A stretch of 64,000 nt of DNA from Bacilli bacterium (lineage in GTDB: Bacteria > Bacillota_I > Bacilli_A > RF39 > UBA660): assembly GCA_017541325.1 (NCBI GenBank), contig JAFXZI010000012.1, positions 72,831-136,830 of the forward strand, in the 5' to 3' direction. Within the stretch, counting starts at the first letter, position 1. Each line of letters opens with the position of its first letter. The position numbers and the translations under genes were made by a program. Positions 16,926 to 45,635 of this stretch are shown one piece after another. The notes below the pieces were generated by a model. That model was not told where the DNA came from. It did no database searches and was given only the letters and a program-made list of their open reading frames with translations.

Positions 16926-16948
16926 AAAATAACCTTAAGGTTATTTTA
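16926..16948. terminator. terminator after the prepilin peptidase gene (palindrome, bidirectional)
   Basis: aaaaaaAATAACCTTAAGGTTATTttatat is an 18-bp palindrome flanked by an A-run and a T-run. It abuts the stop at 16946. A dnaI promoter with a TATAAT -10 lies just downstream on the minus strand. Confidence 0.55.
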
Positions 16949-17707
16949 TATATTTAGTATTGAATGCATATCTATTTTAAATATTATTATTAATAAACAC
17001 GCTATTAAAAGAAATGGTCCATATGGAATTATATTATCTCTACTTTTAATAAATAAAAATAAAGATAAAGGAAATGCTATAAAGCTAGATAAGAATATAC
17101 TAAACAAACTCATCCATGGTCCAACAGCTATTCCTATATAGAACATAAGCTTAATATCTCCTCCACCAAGAGATTCTTTTTTAAGCATTAAATTACCTAA
17201 AAGCATAAGTAAATACATAAGTAGAAAAGCACCTATTCCTGCTGCTAAACTAAATAAGGCATCTTCTACTCCATTAATGGCAAATCTAAGTAGAATTACC
17301 ATTATAGATGCTATTAAAGTAAATTGATCAGGAATAATTAAAAAATTAATATCACTTACTAATACTATAGCAAAAAAAGATGCAGTAATAATTGCAAGTA
17401 CAAAATCAAAACTAAATCCTAAAAACCAATAAGACATGGCAAATAGTATTCCAGTTAATAATTCTGTAATAGTATAAAAAGGTGCAATTTTTTCTTTACA
17501 TGCTCTACATTTACCACCTTGTATTAAATAAGAAAAAACTGGTATTAATTCATACCATTTTAATCTATGTTTACAATGTGGACAAAAGCTTCCTGGTTTA
17601 ACTATAGATAATTTTTTTGGAATACGCCAACCAACTACATTAAAGAAAGATCCAAAAAGCAGTCCAAAGATAAATATAAATATTGTATAAAATACTTTTA
17701 ATTCCAA
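16946..17707 (-). CDS. type IV prepilin peptidase (A24 family, PilD/ComC-like)
   Basis: Polytopic membrane protein. The cytoplasmic tetra-Cys motif CPHC...CRAC and acidic residues typical of A24 peptidases are present. Confidence 0.85.
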   Translation of the reverse strand: MELKVFYTIFIFIFGLLFGSFFNVVGWRIPKKLSIVKPGSFCPHCKHRLKWYELIPVFSYLIQGGKCRACKEKIAPFYTITELLTGILFAMSYWFLGFSFDFVLAIITASFFAIVLVSDINFLIIPDQFTLIASIMVILLRFAINGVEDALFSLAAGIGAFLLMYLLMLLGNLMLKKESLGGGDIKLMFYIGIAVGPWMSLFSIFLSSFIAFPLSLFLFIKSRDNIIPYGPFLLIACLLIIIFKIDMHSILNI

Positions 17708-17718
17708 TTTAATCCCCC

Positions 17719-19137
17719 CTAGATTTGTCCATACATATCAAACATTGGAACCATGATTGAAATTAAGATAAATCCAACAGATACTGCTAGTAAGATAATT
17801 ACCATAGGCTCAAGCAATGATTTTAATGCAGTTGTTGCATTATGTTGTAAGTTTTCAAAGTGCTCAGCAACTTTTTGCATCATTAATGCAAGTTGTCCAG
17901 TTGATTCACCAGTAACAAGCATTTCATAAGCAACTACTGGGAAAGCCCACTCACCTTTAAAAGTCTCACTAAGCTTAGATCCTTTAGATAAACCTATTAA
18001 AGTACGTGAAAGTATTTCTTTATATATTTCATTATTAGTTAAGTTAGATAGAATTTCCATTGAATCTGTAATAAATACACCGTGATTTAATAATGATGAG
18101 AAAGTACGAGTTATAGTTGCAACTTGTCCATATATAACAACATTACCAAATACAGGCATTTTCATAAGAACTATTTGCATTGTACGTCTAAATTCTTTTA
18201 CATTTTTATAAGACCAAATAAAAGTAAATAAGAAAGTACCAACTGCAAGTATCATAGCCCACCAATAAGACTTAATAAAATCACTGGCACCAATTACAAA
18301 TTTAGTAATTGCAGGAAGATCAGCACCTTGGGACTCAAACATTCCAACGAATTGTGGAACGATATAAACTACCATGAATATCAAAACAGCAATAACGACA
18401 ATTAAAATAACCATTGGGTAAATTAAAGCTGAAATTAATTCTTTCTTGGTATTTTCAGTTTTAGTAAAGTAATCTGCCATTTCATCAAGTGTACCAGCAA
18501 GGTCACCAGTCATTTCAGATGTCTTAACCATGTTAATTAAGATACTAGGGAATGCTTTTCCTTGTTTTTCTAAGGCAACAGAAAAAGGTTCACCTAATAC
18601 TAATTCATATATAACTTTATCATATATTCTTTTAAGTTGAGGTTTAGATGTTTGTTTAGCAAGGATTCTCATTGAATCGATAAGAGGAATTCCTGCTTTA
18701 ATATAAGTACCTAATTGTACAAGCGCAAATGATAAATCACCTGTACCAATCTTACCACTACCAATATTTATATCAAAATCATATTTATCACGTTTTTTAA
18801 TTTCTAATATTTCATAACCTTCATTAGATAGGAAAACTCTAACTGCTTGTTCGTCTTTACCATCAAAGATTCCTTTTACAATAGCCCCTTGATCAGTACG
18901 AACAACATATCTATATGAATTTAATTTTACATTATAATCTTCTTCTTTTTTCTCTTCTACATTCTTGAACTCATTACTTTGTTGTTTTACTCTTTCAAGT
19001 TCTTGAACAAGTTCTTCACCATATAATTTATTAGGATCTATTTCTTGTTCATTTTTGAAGATTAAACCTTTTAAATATACAATTCCTTGACCAGCACGTC
19101 TAAGGATAAGTCCAGGAAACTTTAATATATTTTTCAT
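17719..19137 (-). CDS. type II secretion/type IV pilus platform protein (GspF/PilC/ComGB family)
   Basis: Two GspF-like repeats with three TM segments. Start corrected to MKNILKF (AGGGGAAGA RBS). It precedes the prepilin peptidase by 11 nt. Confidence 0.8.
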   Translation of the reverse strand: MKNILKFPGLILRRAGQGIVYLKGLIFKNEQEIDPNKLYGEELVQELERVKQQSNEFKNVEEKKEEDYNVKLNSYRYVVRTDQGAIVKGIFDGKDEQAVRVFLSNEGYEILEIKKRDKYDFDINIGSGKIGTGDLSFALVQLGTYIKAGIPLIDSMRILAKQTSKPQLKRIYDKVIYELVLGEPFSVALEKQGKAFPSILINMVKTSEMTGDLAGTLDEMADYFTKTENTKKELISALIYPMVILIVVIAVLIFMVVYIVPQFVGMFESQGADLPAITKFVIGASDFIKSYWWAMILAVGTFLFTFIWSYKNVKEFRRTMQIVLMKMPVFGNVVIYGQVATITRTFSSLLNHGVFITDSMEILSNLTNNEIYKEILSRTLIGLSKGSKLSETFKGEWAFPVVAYEMLVTGESTGQLALMMQKVAEHFENLQHNATTALKSLLEPMVIILLAVSVGFILISIMVPMFDMYGQI

Positions 19138-19222
19138 AAGATCTTCCCCTATCATCATTCTAATAAAAATTATAACATAGATTTTTAAAAGAAAAAAGAT
19201 AGAAATATATATTTCTATCTTT

Positions 19223-34080: not shown

Positions 34081-34680
34081 TTACCTCCTATATAATCTAT
34101 ATATCATTACACTTATTCCATATGCAAGTCCAAGTATTAAAACTGCCCAAAAAATAGATATATATATTGGTTGGCTTAATACTCTTAAAAATGGATATGG
34201 TCCATCTACTACTTTTAATATATTTAAAATAATTAATACTATTGCATATAAAACTACTGTTCCTATTCCATATTTTTTATCACTTTCTACTATTTTAACT
34301 TTATCAAAACAAGTAAATGCTACTACAAATATAATAGGACATATGAAATGATGAAATAACATTGTTCCATATAATAAGAAATAATAATAATTAAAATTAT
34401 ACATTGGTGCAAGTATAAATAATACTACCAAGAATGTTACTGTTAAACATACTGCCGCAATATATTTAAGTATTGATAACCATTTAGGTATTTTCTTTTT
34501 GTTAATAACAAAAAATAAATATAAACTAGATGCAAAAAGTGCCAAAATATTACTATCTTCTGTAAAATATTCAATACTTATACAATTGTTAGTATTAATT
34601 GAAATCATAAAACCAACTATTTCAAATATAACTACTAAAACATTCAGTATTATAGATACTTTCTTTTTCATTTTAATCAT
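34081..34680 (-). CDS. polytopic membrane protein (hypothetical)
   Basis: 199 aa with 5-6 TM segments. I saw no recognisable motif. Confidence 0.4.
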   Translation of the reverse strand: MIKMKKKVSIILNVLVVIFEIVGFMISINTNNCISIEYFTEDSNILALFASSLYLFFVINKKKIPKWLSILKYIAAVCLTVTFLVVLFILAPMYNFNYYYFLLYGTMLFHHFICPIIFVVAFTCFDKVKIVESDKKYGIGTVVLYAIVLIILNILKVVDGPYPFLRVLSQPIYISIFWAVLILGLAYGISVMIYRLYRR

Positions 34681-36223
34681 CTACCTTATTATTTATTACT
34701 TCTCTACTAATTATTTTATCATCTATATTACAATATCCTAAATATCCATTATATTCAGATATTGCTCTACTAATTCTATTTTTATGGAAGAAAATATTAG
34801 ATATATATTTATCATTCTTTTTATCAAATTTCATAATATCATTATCAATAATTATATTATTTGATTCTATTAATAAATAATCTTCATCTGACTGTTCAAA
34901 TTCATATAAATGATAATAATATGCTTTATCTTTTTCATAGTATTTTTCTACTATAAAAATACTACCATCATCTCTTCTATATTTTCTAACATCAGAATTA
35001 ATTTTTGCTAAACTAGCATCAAAATTTGTACTAAATTCATGACCATTATATGAAAATGAACCAATATAACTATTTTCGTTTATAGCCTCGATTCGATCTT
35101 CATTTAAAAATTTATTTATTAAGTAATCATCTTGTCTCTTTAATTGATTATATTCGTGTTTTAAACTACTTTCATTTTGTTTATAACTATTGTTTTTATT
35201 TGTAATTCCTTCTATATTTTTTATTTTTGAAGAAAGTTCTGCTTTTCTTTTTTCATTAATAAAGAAATTATTTTCAGATATTATTATTCTTGGATTAAGA
35301 ATTCTTCCTCCTTTTAAATAATTACAGTATAAATACTTATATAATGTTTTATTATTCATTTTTAATATTTCTATACCACTTAATAAGAAAGATGTTTTAT
35401 CCTCTCTTACAAATCTATTAGCTTTTATTTGTAATTTATTATTATTAATTTTTCTATCTAATGTAATTAATTCAGCACTGTCGAAAACAGAAATATTTTG
35501 ATTATAATTTTGTATTACTTCACTTCTTAGAGGAAGGTGTTCTCTGTTAAATAAATAAACATTATAATTACCAAAGAATCTACTTTTTAATACTCCACCA
35601 TAATGATATAAATATGAATCATATCCTAAATCTAAACATATAACTTTATTCTCTACTAGAATAATATTCCATGCATAACTTCTATTATTACCTTCTACAA
35701 ATAATGATCTAATTCCTAATCTATCCATTATTTCTTTAAAGATTGTACTAAATCCATAACTAGTAGCTTTTCTAGTTAATAATCCAAGTAAAGTAGTAGA
35801 TTTTCCTTCAAAAAGAGAATCTATATCATATTTAATATATCTTTTTAACTTATTATAAATATAATAAACTTTTTCTACATCATTATAATCTTTTTCAATA
35901 AGTTCTCTTTCAATAAGTTCAAATATTGTTACAACATTTATTAATTCATTACGAGAATAATAATTTTTACCTTCATAATACTCTTTATTATTAGTTCTTA
36001 ATTCTCTTTCTTCATCATACCCACCAGCTACCCTAAATTTTAAATTAGGATAATCTATTATATTTAATAATAAACCAGATTTAATACCTACTGTGTTATT
36101 TAATCTAATAGTTAGTTCCACATTATTATGAGACTTTATAAAATTATTTATATCTACAACATCTTTTTTAGTAATAGTACTTAAATTTATTTTAAATCTT
36201 TCCATACTACACCACCAAATCAT
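34673..36223 (-). CDS. transglutaminase-like superfamily protein, probably catalytically inactive
   Basis: The core block ATSYGFSTIFKEIMDRLGIRSLFVEG...SYAWNIILVENKVICLDLGYD aligns to the TGase-like GxCxxFA...RxxGIPAR...HAW...D pattern. The Cys and His positions are replaced by Ser/Tyr. Confidence 0.5.
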   Translation of the reverse strand: MIWWCSMERFKINLSTITKKDVVDINNFIKSHNNVELTIRLNNTVGIKSGLLLNIIDYPNLKFRVAGGYDEERELRTNNKEYYEGKNYYSRNELINVVTIFELIERELIEKDYNDVEKVYYIYNKLKRYIKYDIDSLFEGKSTTLLGLLTRKATSYGFSTIFKEIMDRLGIRSLFVEGNNRSYAWNIILVENKVICLDLGYDSYLYHYGGVLKSRFFGNYNVYLFNREHLPLRSEVIQNYNQNISVFDSAELITLDRKINNNKLQIKANRFVREDKTSFLLSGIEILKMNNKTLYKYLYCNYLKGGRILNPRIIISENNFFINEKRKAELSSKIKNIEGITNKNNSYKQNESSLKHEYNQLKRQDDYLINKFLNEDRIEAINENSYIGSFSYNGHEFSTNFDASLAKINSDVRKYRRDDGSIFIVEKYYEKDKAYYYHLYEFEQSDEDYLLIESNNIIIDNDIMKFDKKNDKYISNIFFHKNRISRAISEYNGYLGYCNIDDKIISREVINNKVDD

Positions 36224-36908
36224 TTAGACAAATAATAGAATCTTTATATACAATTATTTTTAAAGATACTAAATCATCTATTAAAGCTTTATTCTTTTGA
36301 TATTGAGCTTCAGATATAGATATTGTTTTTAAAGCACTATATTTATTAATAAAATCTAAATCTATTATTGAAGAGTTATCAAGTCTTAATGTATCTATTA
36401 AAGTAAAATGATATAGTGCACTTATATTACTTATATTAGAAAAACTAAGATCTATTTCTAATAAATGTGGTAATTGTTCTAAAAAAGATATTGAATCAAT
36501 TGACATATTAATTAATCCAATTGTATTTAAATGTTTAAATCTCGTAACATCTAATATATTATTGATAGTACAATTATTAATAATTAATTTAGTTATTTTA
36601 AGTTTTGAAAGTATTCCTAAATTAGTAATATTACAATTAGTAAAAGATAGACTTTTTAAATTATTTAAACTAAGTAAATTATCTATATAGTCTTTATCTA
36701 TATTAGTATTACTAATTTCTAATATTTCAAGATTATTAAAATATTTTAATATTTTAGAATCTATTTTATTAAAATGATTAAATAAACCAATAGAGTCAAG
36801 AGATAACTCCTTGACTCTATTTAATTCTTCGTTGGTGAAATTAGTACTAGTTTTATTTAAATAGTCCATAAGATATAATTGTAATTCCAAATAAGGAATA
36901 TTAATCAT
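36207..36908 (-). CDS. leucine-rich repeat (LRR) protein
   Basis: About eight 22-aa repeats of the form LxxLxxLxLSxTNIxxIxxL (NLKSLSFTNCNITNLGILSKL...). No signal peptide is evident. Confidence 0.6.
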   Translation of the reverse strand: MINIPYLELQLYLMDYLNKTSTNFTNEELNRVKELSLDSIGLFNHFNKIDSKILKYFNNLEILEISNTNIDKDYIDNLLSLNNLKSLSFTNCNITNLGILSKLKITKLIINNCTINNILDVTRFKHLNTIGLINMSIDSISFLEQLPHLLEIDLSFSNISNISALYHFTLIDTLRLDNSSIIDLDFINKYSALKTISISEAQYQKNKALIDDLVSLKIIVYKDSIICLNDLVV

Positions 36909-39936: not shown

Positions 39937-39960
39937 ATAAAAGAAATAGATATCTATTTC
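39937..39960. terminator. terminator at the 3' end of the pilus operon
   Basis: AGAAATAGATATCTATTTCT is a 20-bp perfect palindrome followed by TTTATTTT on the minus strand. It overlaps the sortase stop. Confidence 0.5.
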
Positions 39961-40916
39961 TTTTTCTTATTATCTTTATTCTTTATTTTATATTTAATTA
40001 CTCTATATATTAGGATTAAGAAAATAATTATTACAACAATTAATAATAAATATAAAATCATATCTCTAATAGAAATATTAATAGAGAAATTATTTCTTCT
40101 TTTCTTTTTATTCTTATATACTTCTCTTTCTTGTTTTTCTTCTTTTTTCTTTTCAATACCATCATCTTTATTTGATTCAGTTATCTTAGCAAGAAGAACT
40201 GCCCTTTTAGTTGATCCACTAGAGTCACAAGTAGACAAAACTATTAGTTTATCAGTAGAAACTAAAATTGTATCTGATTTATTTTTAGCTACACTACCAA
40301 TATATTCTATAATATCTTTATTATAATTATTTCTAATCCTAAAGATATCAAATACATAGTCATCATATGAACTAACTACAGCATAATTAACTATTTCTAC
40401 ATCATATATTTTGTTTGAAGTATAAAGAGTTCCTTTTAAATGTTTAGAAAAGAAATCTTTGTTTTCATATTTCTTTATATCAGTAAACATCGTATTAGAA
40501 TTCATATGATGTCCATAAATTGCCGTATATTGGTCATTAAAATTCTTATCATTACGATAATCCATAAAAATACTACCAGAAGTAGCATATTCATGTTTAT
40601 AGTTTCTATCTAGATATTCACTATTATCTTTCCCTTTTACAACAGGGTAATCTATTTCTGTATCATCAATAGTAATCCATCCAACAATATCTGGATTTAT
40701 TTCTTGTAAATCATCTAAATAAAATACTTCCTTTTTATCTTCATCTGTTTTAGCAATTGGTTTAAGAGACATTATTTCTTCATCTAGTTCTCCACCTTTT
40801 TGAACTAGATAATTATCATATAATGCGTAGATACCAATTAGTATTATTAAAACAAAGAAAATAGTAATAAGGAATTCTATTATTTTATTTGTTCCTTTTA
40901 TAATTAAATTAATCAT
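39954..40916 (-). CDS. sortase, class B-like (pilus-associated)
   Basis: Has an N-terminal TM anchor. The IDYPVVKGKDNSEYLDRNY block is like the SrtB IDYP[VI][VM]Q..DN.[FY]YL motif. A His (YGHHMN) is present and the TLxTC Cys appears as LVLSTCDSS. There is an additional C-terminal TM segment plus a basic tail. Confidence 0.7.
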   Translation of the reverse strand: MINLIIKGTNKIIEFLITIFFVLIILIGIYALYDNYLVQKGGELDEEIMSLKPIAKTDEDKKEVFYLDDLQEINPDIVGWITIDDTEIDYPVVKGKDNSEYLDRNYKHEYATSGSIFMDYRNDKNFNDQYTAIYGHHMNSNTMFTDIKKYENKDFFSKHLKGTLYTSNKIYDVEIVNYAVVSSYDDYVFDIFRIRNNYNKDIIEYIGSVAKNKSDTILVSTDKLIVLSTCDSSGSTKRAVLLAKITESNKDDGIEKKKEEKQEREVYKNKKKRRNNFSINISIRDMILYLLLIVVIIIFLILIYRVIKYKIKNKDNKKKK

Positions 40917-41889
40917 CCTTATTACCTATCTTTCTTAATAATATCAAACCAACTATACCTAAAATAATTAATATAATAAACGGAAGTATATCTAAGAATA
41001 CTCCTGTTATTGCAACATCATAATCTCTTCTATTTATAATTATGATATAGTTATCTTCATCATTATCAGTAGTTGTATAATTATTAATTACATCATAAGT
41101 AGTTTCCCAACTACGAGAACCAATCTTTTGAATTGAATAATGTGTTCCAATTGGTATTTGATTTATATTATTTTCAGTACCAATTGTTATAGATTGATCT
41201 TTTTTCAAATATATATACACAAAATTATCTTTATCTTTAACAGTATAATAATTAGAAGTATTTATATTTTTTTTATTAAACTTAATAATTGGATCTTGTC
41301 CATCAATATAATATCTATCTCCTACTTTACCATTTATAACTAATTTAAATTTAAAATATTCATCTGTTTTAGATAACTTTCCTTCTGTAGTATTAGTAAT
41401 TTTAATATTAGTATAATTATGATTATGATTAAAAATTAAATCACTTTTAGAATTATCTGTTACATTATATGCTTGTCCATATACAGATGTAATTCCTGCA
41501 CTACCATATAATACATATATATAATATTTCTCGTTAGATATAGAATAATTTTGCATATCACTTGATGAAATTTCTTCTATTAAATATTTATATATACCAT
41601 AATTAGTATAATGAACATTTGAAAAATCTATTTCATAATCATAAGAAACTATATTATTATGCCCTTTAACATTATTAAGAGTTACTACAACTTCTGTAGG
41701 CTCATTACTAACACCACTTTTGTTATTACTATCAGGAGTAATTCTATAAGTGAAAGTATTAGATACAGTATTATTAGTATTTAATATTTGATCAGTTAAA
41801 GTAATACTAGTATCATAAGCTAATGCTTTAACTGGTAATAAAACAAATATAAAAATAAATATAAAGATTATTCTTTTATTCATTTTCAT
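40909..41889 (-). CDS. sortase-assembled pilin-like surface protein (minor pilin candidate)
   Basis: Has a signal peptide. It shares the NTFTY and TEGKLSKTDEYFKFKL blocks with the other two pilins. The C-terminal sorting signal is VAITG, a hydrophobic stretch, then RKIGNKDD. Confidence 0.55.
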   Translation of the reverse strand: MKMNKRIIFIFIFIFVLLPVKALAYDTSITLTDQILNTNNTVSNTFTYRITPDSNNKSGVSNEPTEVVVTLNNVKGHNNIVSYDYEIDFSNVHYTNYGIYKYLIEEISSSDMQNYSISNEKYYIYVLYGSAGITSVYGQAYNVTDNSKSDLIFNHNHNYTNIKITNTTEGKLSKTDEYFKFKLVINGKVGDRYYIDGQDPIIKFNKKNINTSNYYTVKDKDNFVYIYLKKDQSITIGTENNINQIPIGTHYSIQKIGSRSWETTYDVINNYTTTDNDEDNYIIIINRRDYDVAITGVFLDILPFIILIILGIVGLILLRKIGNKDD

Positions 41890-41902
41890 ATTATCCTCCT
41901 CC

Positions 41903-42460
41903 TTAAATACCTCTTATTTGTAATTTTCCTATTACTCTTCCAACAATATCTTTTTTCTCAATCTTTCCAAAACTTCTTGAATCATTAAAATCTAGTCTAA
42001 AATCATTTGTAACAAAATATTCATCTTCTCCTAATATACAAGGATAAGTAACACTTGATCCTTCTGAAAGTTCTGTATCATAAAATCCTTGTATTTCTTC
42101 TCTAAATCCATTAATTAAGAGAGTTCCTTCTTCAATTGTTATCATATCTCCATTAGTTCCAGATATTCTATATATATTATATTCATTATCTTGTTTAACT
42201 AAAACGACATCTCCAACGACATAGTCTTTGTCCAATCTATAATAAATTAATAAGTTTCCATCTGTTATATATGGTGACATAGAACTACCATTCATACGAT
42301 GGACTCCAAAAATAACAAAGAAAATAATAAATATTAAAACAAGAATAACTGCAATTTTAATTAAAAGTATTAATAGATTGTTCTTAGTCTTTTTCTTTTC
42401 ATTATTCTTTGCTTTTTCTTTTTCTATTTCTTTTTTATCATTCTTTTTCCAAAAATTCAT
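41903..42460 (-). CDS. signal peptidase I (S26 family), pilus-associated SipA/LepA-like
   Basis: Has a TM anchor, then GSSMSPYI (the SM-x-P Ser box), a KQDNEYNIYRISG block and a GDNRxxSxDSR-like DFNDSRSFG block. It is embedded in the pilin/sortase cluster, as in streptococcal pilus islands. Confidence 0.7.
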   Translation of the reverse strand: MNFWKKNDKKEIEKEKAKNNEKKKTKNNLLILLIKIAVILVLIFIIFFVIFGVHRMNGSSMSPYITDGNLLIYYRLDKDYVVGDVVLVKQDNEYNIYRISGTNGDMITIEEGTLLINGFREEIQGFYDTELSEGSSVTYPCILGEDEYFVTNDFRLDFNDSRSFGKIEKKDIVGRVIGKLQIRGI

Positions 42461-42558
42461 ATTATCACCACTATTATATTACTATATTTAAAATATCATA
42501 TTTTTGATTTTTTATAAATGCTTTTCAAATAAAAAAACTGCATATGCAGTTTTTTATA

Positions 42559-43611
42559 TTATTCTTGAGCACTTAAACGTTTATTAATATAAATACCAAT
42601 TACTGCAAGACCTATTAATAATACGAATGGTAGAATATTAATAAATATACCTGTTAATACATCTGATTGATAATTGTTTATATATGCAGTTGTATTATTT
42701 GTACTAAAGTTTGATGCATTTGTTGCTACTGTAGTTTTAGTTGTAGTTTTTGCATCTGTAGTACTTCCATCGATATATGTTTTATAATCTGTAGCACCTG
42801 TTTCAGTAATTGTATAACTACCATTAATTGGTATTTCATTTATTGTTCCATTAAGTCCAATTGTAACACTTTGTCCATGCTTTAAATATAGTGTTGTAGT
42901 TGTACCAACAGTATAAGTTGAACTGTTTACTGTAGTAGTTCCATCTGTTGAGTGATCACCTGTTACTGTATAAGTATCTCCTGCAGTTCCTGGAAGACTT
43001 ACTGTAAATGCAAAGTATTCATCTTTATCAGCTAAATTACCAGTTACTCCTTTAGATAATGTTATATAAGTTAATTCAGTATTTGATTCAAATAATAAGT
43101 TAGATACTTTAGTTCCATTTAATGTAGGTTGAACAATCATAGTAGCATTTTTAGTTCCTTCTGGTACGTTATTTGCATCTACATTATATCTTACTGATAC
43201 AAACAGATGATATTCTTTAGTATCTAAAGGATAAGCAGTTGCATCAGTTGATGCTGTCTCTTTTACAATGAATTCATAATCTCCAACTTTATCAAATACT
43301 ACACTTGATAAGTCAATAGTACCAGTTGCAGTAGCTGTTCCACTAACTGGAACTACATTATTAAATACTACAGTTGGATTAGTTGAAGGAAGTGTAACTG
43401 GTTCAGGATTGGAAGCAGCAGCCGTAACCGTATAAGTAAATGTATTAGTTACAGGGTTAGTTACATCATTAACCTCTCTTGTAATTGTCCATGAAGTTGT
43501 AGTATTTCCTGTAGATGTTGCTATTGTAGTAGTTGCAGCATTAACAGGCGTTGCATTCATTCCTAAAATAATTGCAAATATTGTAAATAAGTATTTTTTA
43601 ATATTTTTCAT
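42559..43611 (-). CDS. sortase-assembled pilin (backbone pilin candidate)
   Basis: Has a signal peptide and Thr-rich prealbumin/CnaB-like repeats. TGNLADKDEYFAFTV is present, and an E-box-like YTITETGATDY matches YxLxETxAPxGY. The sorting signal is DVLTG, a hydrophobic stretch, then NKRLSAQE. Confidence 0.6.
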   Translation of the reverse strand: MKNIKKYLFTIFAIILGMNATPVNAATTTIATSTGNTTTSWTITREVNDVTNPVTNTFTYTVTAAASNPEPVTLPSTNPTVVFNNVVPVSGTATATGTIDLSSVVFDKVGDYEFIVKETASTDATAYPLDTKEYHLFVSVRYNVDANNVPEGTKNATMIVQPTLNGTKVSNLLFESNTELTYITLSKGVTGNLADKDEYFAFTVSLPGTAGDTYTVTGDHSTDGTTTVNSSTYTVGTTTTLYLKHGQSVTIGLNGTINEIPINGSYTITETGATDYKTYIDGSTTDAKTTTKTTVATNASNFSTNNTTAYINNYQSDVLTGIFINILPFVLLIGLAVIGIYINKRLSAQE

Positions 43612-43701
43612 ATTATCTCTCCTATTCTATCTAATTTAAGATTATCACTTATAATATTATCTATCAACGTAAATTTACATCTTAGAATGTATATTTTACA
43701 T

Positions 43702-45549
43702 CTATTTCATTTTATTTTTTCTAAATAAGATAATTGCAATTGGTCCAATTGCAATAAATGAATATGCAAATTTTAGATCAATTTGTCTTCCTGTTGCCGG
43801 TGATTGTTCTTTATTGTTTACAAATGTAGCGATGTTACTAGTAGAATTTATTGTTCCTGTAATTGTATCAGTTGTTGGTGTATATCCATTAGTAGTTTCA
43901 GTAATTGTATATACATCTCCTACTTCAATGTCTTTGATTAATATATTGTTTTGACTAGATATATTTACTGTAGCAACCCCGTTTACAAAAGTAAGTTGTG
44001 ACTGTTGAAGATTTCCTCCTACATAATAATCATATGATCCATTTATACCAGTACCATTTTTTGTAATATTTATTTCTAGTTCAAATAATTCATCTACATC
44101 TGCCATATTTCCTGTTACTTCTTTATTAATTTCTAAATCACCAAAATTTGAATTTAATTGCCATACGGCAGTATAAGTAACATCTGCTGTTACTGTAGAA
44201 CTTATTGTTGGAGTCCATCCCATAAATGTATATCCTGGACGAGTTGGTGTTCCAACAAATTGAGGAGTATTAGTATTTACTTGTAAATTATTATAGACTT
44301 GATCAGCAAATACTTCTTCTCCAGTTACTCCATCTGTATAAGTAACAGTATAGACATCAACTGTAGATATTGTATATGGATTATTCCAAGAACCATCTCC
44401 TCCATCAAAAGTTACATTTTGTTTTAAATATAGTGTTGGTCTAACTGAAGAAGTTCCATTTGTTCCGTTTGTATTTAAAGTCCCATTTGTATTTATTTGA
44501 TATACATAGCTAGATCCATTAAGAGCTGGAGTAATTGTCCATTGAGTTGGTTGAGTTTTTTGAGAATCAGATGTTGCATTTGCAGTTGCAACGTTTCTTA
44601 ACCAGTTATTATTAACACAATCAGCATTTGTACTCCACGAACGAATTTGTGTATTTGTTATACATGTATTTCTAGATGTTGTTCCATTTCCCGCAGTAGC
44701 AAGTCCATAATCACTTACATACATTAATCCTAATTTTCCAGTCCATGTAACTGCTCTTGATGTATTAAATGCTGATCCAGTAGATTTTTCAATATCTAAG
44801 AAATCTTTTGGTGTAGCATTATTAGAATTACTATTACCGCTTATTCCTCTAATATGCCAATTTGCTTCTGCAATCATATCTTTATAAGTTGTTTGTAAAG
44901 TATTAATACTTGCTGTAGTTGTTGATTGCCATCCATTATTACCAACTTGTGCAGGAGTATATACAGTTGTTCCATAGTAATAACTACCCATGTTTCTAAA
45001 CATGTTTTTAGAATCTTTAATATAGTTTTCATCACCAGTTCCAGGTACAACTGTATAATTATGAGCTTGGGTACCATCCGCTAGTAATCCAGTATTTAAA
45101 TAATCTGTTGGATTCATAAGCATCATTACTTCTGAATCAGACCAGTCATTACTTCCTGTACCAGCTGATGATCCAACACCATTTCTTTTATAGTCAAAAA
45201 TCCAATTACCTAAAGACTCATCTCTTATAATCTTTACAAGTTTTTCTCCACTTCTACCATGAGTGGCATCTTCAAATACTCCAATTATTCTCCATTTTTC
45301 TCCATTAAACATAATATAGTTACAAGGATTAGAACCAACATACCTTAAACTATTATCTCCTGTAACATTGTCATAGGCTAATGTATTTGTACATGTTCCA
45401 TTAGTTCCTAAATTAATAACATCTGTTGTATTTGTAGGATAACTAGATACTAGTCCTGTTATGTAATCACTTAGGAATTCGTCAGCATAAACATAAGAAG
45501 GCATAACAAAAGTAATTAATACACTAAGAATCAATATTAATTTCTTCAT
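43702..45549 (-). CDS. large sortase substrate: pilus tip adhesin/pilin candidate
   Basis: Start corrected to MKKLILIL (GGGAGG RBS). Has a signal peptide, a TGNMADVDELFELEI block, an E-box-like YTITETTNGY and a C-terminal SPATG, hydrophobic stretch, RKNKMK sorting signal. Confidence 0.6.
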   Translation of the reverse strand: MKKLILILSVLITFVMPSYVYADEFLSDYITGLVSSYPTNTTDVINLGTNGTCTNTLAYDNVTGDNSLRYVGSNPCNYIMFNGEKWRIIGVFEDATHGRSGEKLVKIIRDESLGNWIFDYKRNGVGSSAGTGSNDWSDSEVMMLMNPTDYLNTGLLADGTQAHNYTVVPGTGDENYIKDSKNMFRNMGSYYYGTTVYTPAQVGNNGWQSTTTASINTLQTTYKDMIAEANWHIRGISGNSNSNNATPKDFLDIEKSTGSAFNTSRAVTWTGKLGLMYVSDYGLATAGNGTTSRNTCITNTQIRSWSTNADCVNNNWLRNVATANATSDSQKTQPTQWTITPALNGSSYVYQINTNGTLNTNGTNGTSSVRPTLYLKQNVTFDGGDGSWNNPYTISTVDVYTVTYTDGVTGEEVFADQVYNNLQVNTNTPQFVGTPTRPGYTFMGWTPTISSTVTADVTYTAVWQLNSNFGDLEINKEVTGNMADVDELFELEINITKNGTGINGSYDYYVGGNLQQSQLTFVNGVATVNISSQNNILIKDIEVGDVYTITETTNGYTPTTDTITGTINSTSNIATFVNNKEQSPATGRQIDLKFAYSFIAIGPIAIILFRKNKMK

Positions 45550-45605
45550 ATACGTTCGCCTCCCATTATTATTATTCAATTATATTATAATAGAAAAGCG
45601 CACAA

Positions 45606-45635
45606 AAAAAGCATGTTTTTTGACATGCTTTACAC
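45606..45635 (-). terminator. terminator upstream of the pilus operon (ends rseP-orf81 transcript)
   Basis: Minus-strand reading is AAAGCATGtcaaaaaaCATGCTTTTTTTG. A TATAAT -10 for the pilus operon follows downstream on the minus strand. Confidence 0.5.

Follow-up and report, generated by a model that had tools for sequence, protein, structure and literature searches.

What do the five co-directional genes next to smc in an uncultured gut bacterium encode, and do their products build a pilus? The genes lie in a 64,000-nucleotide (nt) stretch of contig JAFXZI010000012.1 (assembly GCA_017541325.1, positions 72,831 to 136,830 of the forward strand), referred to here as the window. The locus is a probable insertion of 5.7 kb, with orf81 (downstream of rseP) on one side and smc on the other, and the host is a walled, low-GC, uncultured ruminant-gut Bacilli bacterium. 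The operon very probably specifies a heterotrimeric, covalently polymerised pilus of the type encoded by the FCT-2/3/4 regions of Streptococcus pyogenes and by pilus islet 2 (PI-2) of Streptococcus pneumoniae. The system is a known one, of which this is a further case with some unusual details, and the locus itself is not surprising. An initial annotation of the window had proposed an FCT-type layout of pilins, SipA and a class B sortase, and the nearest relatives of the products agree with this, namely Spy0128 for the 350-aa pilin, SipA/LepA for the S26 protein and the SrtB family including Spy0129 for the sortase.

The open reading frame (ORF) list of the window contains five back-to-back co-directional minus-strand ORFs within 39954-45579, bearing out the five genes initially annotated, and gene callers on identical metagenomic contigs gave products of 615, 350, 185, 324/326 and 320 amino acids (aa). 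The start codon of the first gene is the ATG at 45549, 3' of a GGGAGG ribosome-binding site; the ORF list starts it at TTG 45579. The sortase gene overlaps the preceding 326-aa gene by 8 nt. The features of the locus are as follows.

45608..45631, minus strand: upstream hairpin and T-run (terminator scan; -10.7 kcal/mol; sequence)
45549..43702, minus strand: tip adhesin, 615 aa
44365-45480: tip head domain following the signal peptide, residues ~24-395
44140-44364: one Listeria-Bacteroides (Flg_new) repeat of the tip protein, residues ~396-470
43780-44142: DUF7601 CnaB-like stalk of the tip protein with a K476/E551/N578-type triad, residues ~470-590
43789-43803, minus strand: tip sorting signal SPATG
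43611..42559, minus strand: probable shaft (backbone) pilin, 350 aa, two-domain FctA/T-antigen type (model, Foldseek, profile)
42649-42663, minus strand: shaft pilin sorting signal DVLTG
42532..42555, minus strand: hairpin and T-run in the gap between the shaft pilin gene and the sipA-like gene (terminator scan; -10.6 kcal/mol; z -4.1)
42460..41903, minus strand: SipA/LepA-like, probable S26 pseudo-peptidase, 185 aa (Pfam, NCBIfam; PDB matches 4n31 and 4k8w)
41889..40909, minus strand: second FctA-like pilin, 326 aa (paralogy to the 350-aa pilin; aligned residues)
41002-41016, minus strand: second pilin sorting signal VAITG
40916..39954, minus strand: class B sortase, 320 aa (TIGR03064; PDB matches 4y4q and 3psq)
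39937..39960, minus strand: AT-rich hairpin and U-run overlapping the sortase stop codon, downstream boundary (-9.9 kcal/mol; z -2.9)
39923-39895: native smc promoter TTTACA-17-TATAAT, directly after the downstream hairpin

Putative pilus subunits

The AlphaFold model of the 350-aa pilin, built on 56 family members, had a predicted local distance difference test (pLDDT) score of 91. When this model was searched with Foldseek the top 16 matches were all S. pyogenes major pilins/T-antigens, including 3b2m, 3gld and 3gle, and the match to 3b2m (Spy0128) had an E-value of 4.4e-17 and a target-normalised TM-score of 0.74. The next matches were PitB of PI-2, Cpa and PitA. The family profile matched Spy0128 (3b2m) with an E-value of 1.6e-23 over the full length (residues 28-317); searching the PDB with the single sequence returned a spurious nanobody match only, and the family profile was needed. 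The protein has 93 homologues, nearly all with Pfam DUF7601 and the same kind of sorting signal. When DUF7601 was defined, it was predicted to be an isopeptide domain of CnaB-like type with Lys-Glu-Asn (PMC12617251). On the N-domain Pfam FctA (PF12892) gave no match at E<=0.01, with only DUF7601 reported, and PF12892 is carried by a few members of the family. Residues of known function in Spy0128 were aligned with those of the 350-aa pilin, and their conservation was counted in the 56 family members.

Spy0128 K161, acceptor Lys in the omega loop: K168 (codon 43108-43110), 55 of 56
Spy0128 K179, C-domain isopeptide Lys: K187, 25 of 56
Spy0128 E258, C-domain catalytic Glu: E270, 40 of 56
Spy0128 N303, C-domain isopeptide Asn: N312, 51 of 56
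Spy0128 K36, N-domain isopeptide Lys: R45, Arg in 46 of 56
Spy0128 N168, N-domain isopeptide Asn: S176, Ser in most (Ser or Thr)
Spy0128 E117, N-domain catalytic Glu: E118, 56 of 56

From these residues an isopeptide bond is predicted in the C-domain of the 350-aa pilin and none is predicted in the N-domain. The initial annotation had suggested a search for CnaB-type isopeptide residues, and this recovered K187, E270 and N312 in the C-domain and no Lys-Asn pair in the N-domain. A buried Arg-Glu pair may substitute for the N-domain covalent bond in this family. A YPKN-like pilin motif lysine had also been expected. FctA-type pilins use a lysine of the omega loop and not a YPKN-type motif (PMC7900414), and it is this lysine (K168) that is found here in place of the expected one.

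The 326-aa protein is paralogous to the 350-aa pilin (27-30% identity, E 5e-28). The omega-loop lysine is kept as K148 and the N-domain pair is Asp/His. Its YDVAITG sequence is kept in the orthologues in contigs L090 and L092 though overall identity is only 40%. The 326-aa protein is probably a basal or minor pilin, and on balance we favour an assignment in which the 350-aa pilin forms the shaft and the 326-aa pilin the base.

The 615-aa tip protein has a lectin-like head. Pfam gave only a sub-threshold DUF6273 match on the head (E 0.11), and the tip family profile had no matches when compared with the PDB by sequence. The protein has no FctA-type N-domain and therefore lacks an acceptor lysine.

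All three substrates have AxA-type signal peptides (judged by eye) and end in xxxTG followed by a hydrophobic transmembrane helix and a basic tail, a combination found among the coding-strand ORFs of the window only in these three proteins. The sequence motifs initially annotated as common to all three are divided between them. TGN(L/M)AD.DE(Y/L)F and YTITET are shared by the tip protein and the 350-aa pilin, with EGKLSKTDEYF and YSIQKIG in their place in the 326-aa protein, and NTFTY is present in both pilins and not in the tip.

Sortase and SipA-like protein

The sortase was assigned to class B both by sequence models and by its solved relatives. It scored 206.5 bits on NCBIfam TIGR03064 (class B, cutoff 153.75) over residues 10-240 and failed the class C (pilus) model NF033745 with 19.2 bits against a cutoff of 160, which upholds the class-B-like sortase of the initial annotation. 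The hidden Markov model searches that the annotation had proposed with Pfam Sortase and Peptidase_S26 matched the 320-aa protein at 2.7e-13 and the 185-aa protein at 6.7e-19, respectively. The best solved relatives of the sortase were of the SrtB family, with 4y4q at 5.9e-40, Bacillus anthracis SrtB, and 3psq at 1e-33. The last is S. pyogenes Spy0129, a pilus polymerase (PMC3019223). The SrtB-like motifs previously noted were found as IDYPVV..DNSEYL and LSTC, and when aligned with SrtB structures the catalytic residues were in place as YGHH(136/137)M, LSTC(230)D and KR(238)AV, the equivalents in Spy0129 being His126/His127, Cys221 and Arg229 (PMC3019223).

In addition to an N-terminal transmembrane helix the sortase has an extra C-terminal one (residues 283-305, coordinates 40002-40070) followed by a Lys-rich tail. 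This helix, flagged as unusual in the initial annotation, is real and is a property of the clade, as it is kept in 11/11 of the closest sortase homologues (39-83% identity, 314-417 aa). More distant homologues of 223-280 aa are without it. Spy0129 has 237 residues and is explicitly without a C-terminal anchor (PMC3019223), and the single N-terminal anchor typical of Spy0129 and of Staphylococcus aureus and B. anthracis SrtB is not what is found here. As read from the sequence, the second helix is a departure in architecture that leaves the catalytic domain unaffected.

The 185-aa protein has a Lys-rich N-tail and a transmembrane helix, and is nearest to S. pyogenes SipA (4n31, 8e-19) and LepA (4k8w, 1e-16), the best active signal peptidase matching at 3e-5. 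SipA/LepA is required for assembly of FCT-2/3/4, PI-2 and PI-2b pili (PMC7900414, PMC4049620). The protein had been annotated as an intact SipA-like signal peptidase. Its Ser box GSSMSP is there, with Ser60 at the position of the nucleophile where S. pyogenes SipA has Asp48, and the word intact does not hold. The position of the general-base Lys is occupied by Tyr97 (NIYRISG vs YVKRIIG of active enzymes; Gly85 in SipA), and box E is degenerate, reading TND...FNDSR vs GDN and SxDSR, with Gly replaced by Asn and Ser by Phe as in SipA (PMC4049620). An active type I signal peptidase has Ser and Lys together with the Gly and Ser of box E, and of these only the nucleophile is present. Of the Ser-Lys dyad whose loss characterises SipA/LepA, the Lys is gone and Ser60 is kept. 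When the query and the 150 nearest representatives of 50%-identity clusters were aligned (151 sequences), Ser and Lys occurred together in 11 and Ser without Lys in ~33, so that retention of Ser is no sign of activity. Going by these residues, the 185-aa protein is probably a SipA-type pseudo-peptidase that happens to keep Ser.

Unrelated contigs carry the same combination of an adhesin, one or more DUF7601 pilins, an S26 protein and a class B sortase, and the S26 gene is linked to a pilus operon with class B sortase also in contigs L087-L095. The order pilin, SipA, pilin 2, sortase was found in 4/5 loci whose sortase is anchored at both ends. In four cluster representatives (P0245, P0257, P0399 and P0482) sortase and SipA form a single chain of 478-521 aa, arranged as sortase, transmembrane helix, Lys-rich loop, transmembrane helix and SipA. 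The fusion at L095:3548-4984 adjoins an FctA/DUF7601 pilin and a second S26-containing protein of 470 aa. Such fusions link SipA function physically to the class B sortase, suggesting a plausible reason for the C-terminal helix of the sortase studied here. We tentatively propose that the C-terminal helix and Lys-rich tail of the sortase and the N-tail and helix of the SipA-like protein could be two halves of a membrane-embedded sortase-SipA complex. With soluble fragments no SipA-sortase interaction was detected (PMC7900414). If the proposal is true, SipA works by docking onto the class B sortase, which would answer what SipA does.

Two further occurrences of these genes were noted. In L092:4274-8497 the gene after pilin, SipA, pilin and sortase encodes 1407 aa with a Cellulase (glycoside hydrolase family 5, GH5) domain, DUF285 repeats, a DUF7601 stalk and a KSVNTG end, and may be a glycoside hydrolase displayed at a pilus tip in a gut bacterium. 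Family pilins with SipA-like and class B sortase genes were also found on metagenome-assembled genomes labelled Candidatus Saccharibacteria (L089, GCA_017437945.1; P0060; P0071), reflecting either real spread to that phylum or misbinning.

Proposed pilus assembly, alternative readings and known systems

By homology, Sec would export the three substrates, which would stay in the membrane through their C-terminal helix and basic tail, and the class B sortase (Cys230, His136, Arg238) would cleave each xxxTG signal between T and G. The 615-aa protein would stand at the tip and present its lectin-like head on the repeat and the isopeptide-stabilised stalk; as it has a sorting signal and no acceptor Lys it could enter only as the first subunit. 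The 326-aa paralogue, with its acceptor Lys and conserved VAITG, would most likely be the minor or basal subunit, stopping polymerisation and becoming linked to peptidoglycan. The S26 homologue would act as a non-proteolytic assembly factor like SipA/LepA.

Several observations weigh against a polymerised pilus or leave parts of the scheme less secure. The shaft N-domain is without the Lys-Asn pair (R45/S176), and the 326-aa pilin has Lys in place of the C-domain Glu and so misses part of the isopeptide hallmark. Pro is absent from 2/3 of the sorting signals, whereas characterised class B pilus substrates have EVPTG, QVPTG and VPPTG. The shaft and basal roles rest indirectly on the intact triad of the 350-aa pilin, on the hairpin after its gene and on single-pilin loci elsewhere, which carry the 350-type. 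No housekeeping sortase was found within the window to account for the wall-anchoring step, and neither the promoter scan nor the sequence gave a convincing -35/-10 pair between the upstream hairpin and the start codon. Metagenomes are the only source from which the organism is known.

An alternative reading is that the three proteins are adhesins anchored to the wall individually by the class B sortase and left unpolymerised, as with Isd proteins and the SPKTG/PPKTG substrates of Clostridioides difficile SrtB. The C. difficile motifs resemble the SPATG of the tip, and the partly missing isopeptide signature would suit monomers. SPATG also resembles SPQTG of the Thomasclavelia ramosa IgAse (PMC12237041), and class B sortases anchor more often than they polymerise (PMC7900414). 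We nevertheless regard monomeric adhesins as very unlikely, as the lysine equivalent to Spy0128 K161 is in the omega loop of all family members but one and would be without rationale in a monomer, the match to shaft pilins extends over the whole protein fold, and the operon includes a SipA-like gene, SipA being needed for polymerisation in every case studied (PMC4049620, PMC7900414). It is most improbable that the S26 homologue is instead an active enzyme, serving as a dedicated signal peptidase for the pilin precursors. The Ser of GSSMSP is kept where S. pyogenes SipA has Asp, and an intact dyad has been reported in some streptococcal SipA homologues (PMC4049620), but here Tyr stands for the general-base Lys, the box E Gly that must be small beside that Lys is Asn, and the Ser that stabilises the Lys is Phe, as in inactive SipA (PMC4049620). 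Few of the aligned relatives pair Ser with Lys and about three times as many have the Ser without it, and the ordinary AxA-type signal peptides of the pilins could be cleaved by a housekeeping peptidase. A covalently polymerised pilus assembled with a SipA-type pseudo-peptidase is the reading we retain.

Compared with known systems, the gene content matches that of S. pyogenes FCT-2/FCT-3/FCT-4 (Cpa, SipA/LepA, FctA/T-antigen, SrtC1/SrtC2, FctB). Both have a tip adhesin whose stalk is CnaB-type, a shaft pilin of the two-domain FctA type that bears an acceptor Lys in the omega loop, a SipA-like (probable) S26 pseudo-peptidase, a class B sortase in which an HH doublet, Cys and Arg are present, and non-LPXTG sorting signals ending in TG. 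The locus differs in its gene order (tip, shaft, sipA, pilin 2, sortase) and in its second pilin, a full two-domain FctA paralogue, whereas FctB is small with a polyproline tail and an LPXTG signal. Arg45/Ser176 replace the Lys36-Asn168 isopeptide pair of the shaft N-domain, the SipA-like protein keeps Ser, and the sortase has the extra C-terminal helix that Spy0129 is without (PMC3019223). A thioester domain is missing from the tip, whose head is lectin-like. Only one of the three sorting signals contains Pro, and there is no RofA/Nra-type regulator at the locus.

The locus also resembles PI-2 of S. pneumoniae and Streptococcus oralis (PitA, SipA, PitB, SrtG1, SrtG2) in being a small island of variable presence. 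Common to it and PI-2 are a tip protein, SipA, a shaft pilin of FctA type and class B sortase(s), and PitB and PitA were among the structural matches. The sortase match 4y4q ('Sortase, SrtB family') is presumably SrtG1 of PI-2. Unlike PI-2, there is one sortase and not two, the tip head is not a von Willebrand factor A (vWA) domain, and there are two pilin paralogues. The N-terminal domain of T. ramosa IgAse (PDB 9qa6) is also among the closest known systems. Membrane anchoring at both ends is shared with class C pilus sortases, although the sequence here is class B.

Pili built by a sortase of class B together with SipA have been studied almost only in pathogenic streptococci. The locus and its ~90 pilin-family relatives suggest that uncultured Bacilli of the gut and rumen commonly have this machinery; among them heads are swapped between sister species, and at the tip position one relative has a glycoside-hydrolase domain. 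The doubly anchored sortase, the SipA with Ser and without Lys, the sortase-SipA fusions elsewhere and the Arg/Ser N-domain with its invariant Glu are natural experiments on two questions of pilus biology, the need for SipA and the dispensability of isopeptide bonds. As leads, sortase-SipA coupling and the modular tips of relatives are of greater interest.

Boundaries and history of the island

The initial annotation had placed terminators at both ends of the island. The upstream hairpin and T-run were confirmed by scan and folding energy; this element terminates the rseP-orf81 unit and is the upstream boundary of the island. The downstream hairpin (GAAATAGATATCTATTTC, then UUUUAUUUU) was confirmed by folding energy and was missed by the terminator scan because it has fewer than 3 G-C pairs and is too AT-rich. 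The position initially given, between smc and rseP, is right on the smc side, and on the rseP side an 81-aa gene (orf81) intervenes. A third hairpin, absent from the initial annotation, lies inside the operon at 42532-42555. It is palindromic and 0/200 shuffles folded as well, and it probably acts as a partial terminator to set the ratio of the subunits. Near the operon, the best site resembling a promoter, TTGTCA-18-TACAAT (45683-45654, minus strand), is inside the end of orf81 and was rejected as the operon promoter, as it sits upstream of the terminator hairpin. Because of this position the upstream hairpin could be a leader or attenuator for the pilus operon instead of a simple terminator.

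Exact copies of the island proteins were found on 21 contigs from ruminant gut metagenomes. In contigs of three more distant relatives, L007 and L008 (RseP 66% identical in both) and L011 (55%), uppS, cdsA, rseP, orf81, smc and a leucine-rich repeat (LRR) protein gene follow in order without pilus genes. The gap between orf81 and smc in all three is only ~60 nt and contains a terminator followed directly by TTTACA...TATAAT, and the same smc promoter sequence directly follows the island in the window. A sister species (L090/L091), with housekeeping proteins 83-91% identical, has the island at the same site. In L090 (5425-12847) the pilins and sortase are 79-88% identical to those of the window. 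The head of its tip protein (first ~336 residues) is unrelated and similarity starts at residue 337; the head has therefore been swapped between the sister species. L090 also has an extra 601-aa multi-pass DUF6020 membrane protein between sortase and smc. The comparison of relatives that the initial annotation had called for is in keeping with an inserted island, as conserved genes flank one fixed chromosomal site at which its presence varies (it is there in the window and L090/L091, and absent from L007, L008 and L011).

The locus might instead be ancestral at this site and have been deleted in the relatives without pilus genes. In keeping with this, no integrase, transposase/recombinase or meaningful flanking direct or inverted repeats were found at the island, the compositional contrast is mild (GC 30-31% for the tip and shaft genes, 21-25% for the other three and 26% for the window), and two species have the island fixed at one and the same site. 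On the other hand, the three relatives represent two levels of divergence and all have the same clean junction of orf81 terminator and smc promoter, the promoter sequence of that junction being the one that follows the island in the window. A history of loss calls for two or more precise deletions and one of gain for a single event, and related modules elsewhere are in quite different genomic contexts. We therefore consider an ancestral locus unlikely. By this comparison of contigs, a single gain in the common ancestor of the window's species and L090 is the most parsimonious history and the likelier one.

As relatives are labelled 'Tenericutes' a wall-less host, in which a sortase-built pilus would be striking, was considered and rejected, as the window has a class B penicillin-binding protein with PASTA domains beside MraW. 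These genes indicate that the host makes peptidoglycan. An apparent frameshift of the 326-aa gene in contig L004 was traced to a run of N in a scaffold gap and is an assembly artefact.

Three other gene groups in the window were noted, all on the minus strand. Type IV pilus/competence-pseudopilus genes at 694-2187, 16946-17707 and 17719-19158 encode a 497-aa protein bearing a methylation motif at its N-terminus, an A24 prepilin peptidase and a type II secretion system F (T2SS-F) platform protein, suggesting that the organism probably has a second, unrelated fibre system. At 60720-62960 a DUF5305 protein (355 aa) adjoins a 382-aa protein with a C-terminal Peptidase_S26 match (2.9e-07), which is a second signal-peptidase-like gene of the window in a different context. 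Directly downstream of smc, at 34673-36908, are genes for a 233-aa LRR protein and a 516-aa protein with a weak transglutaminase-core match, and the position of this pair is kept in L008, L011 and L090.

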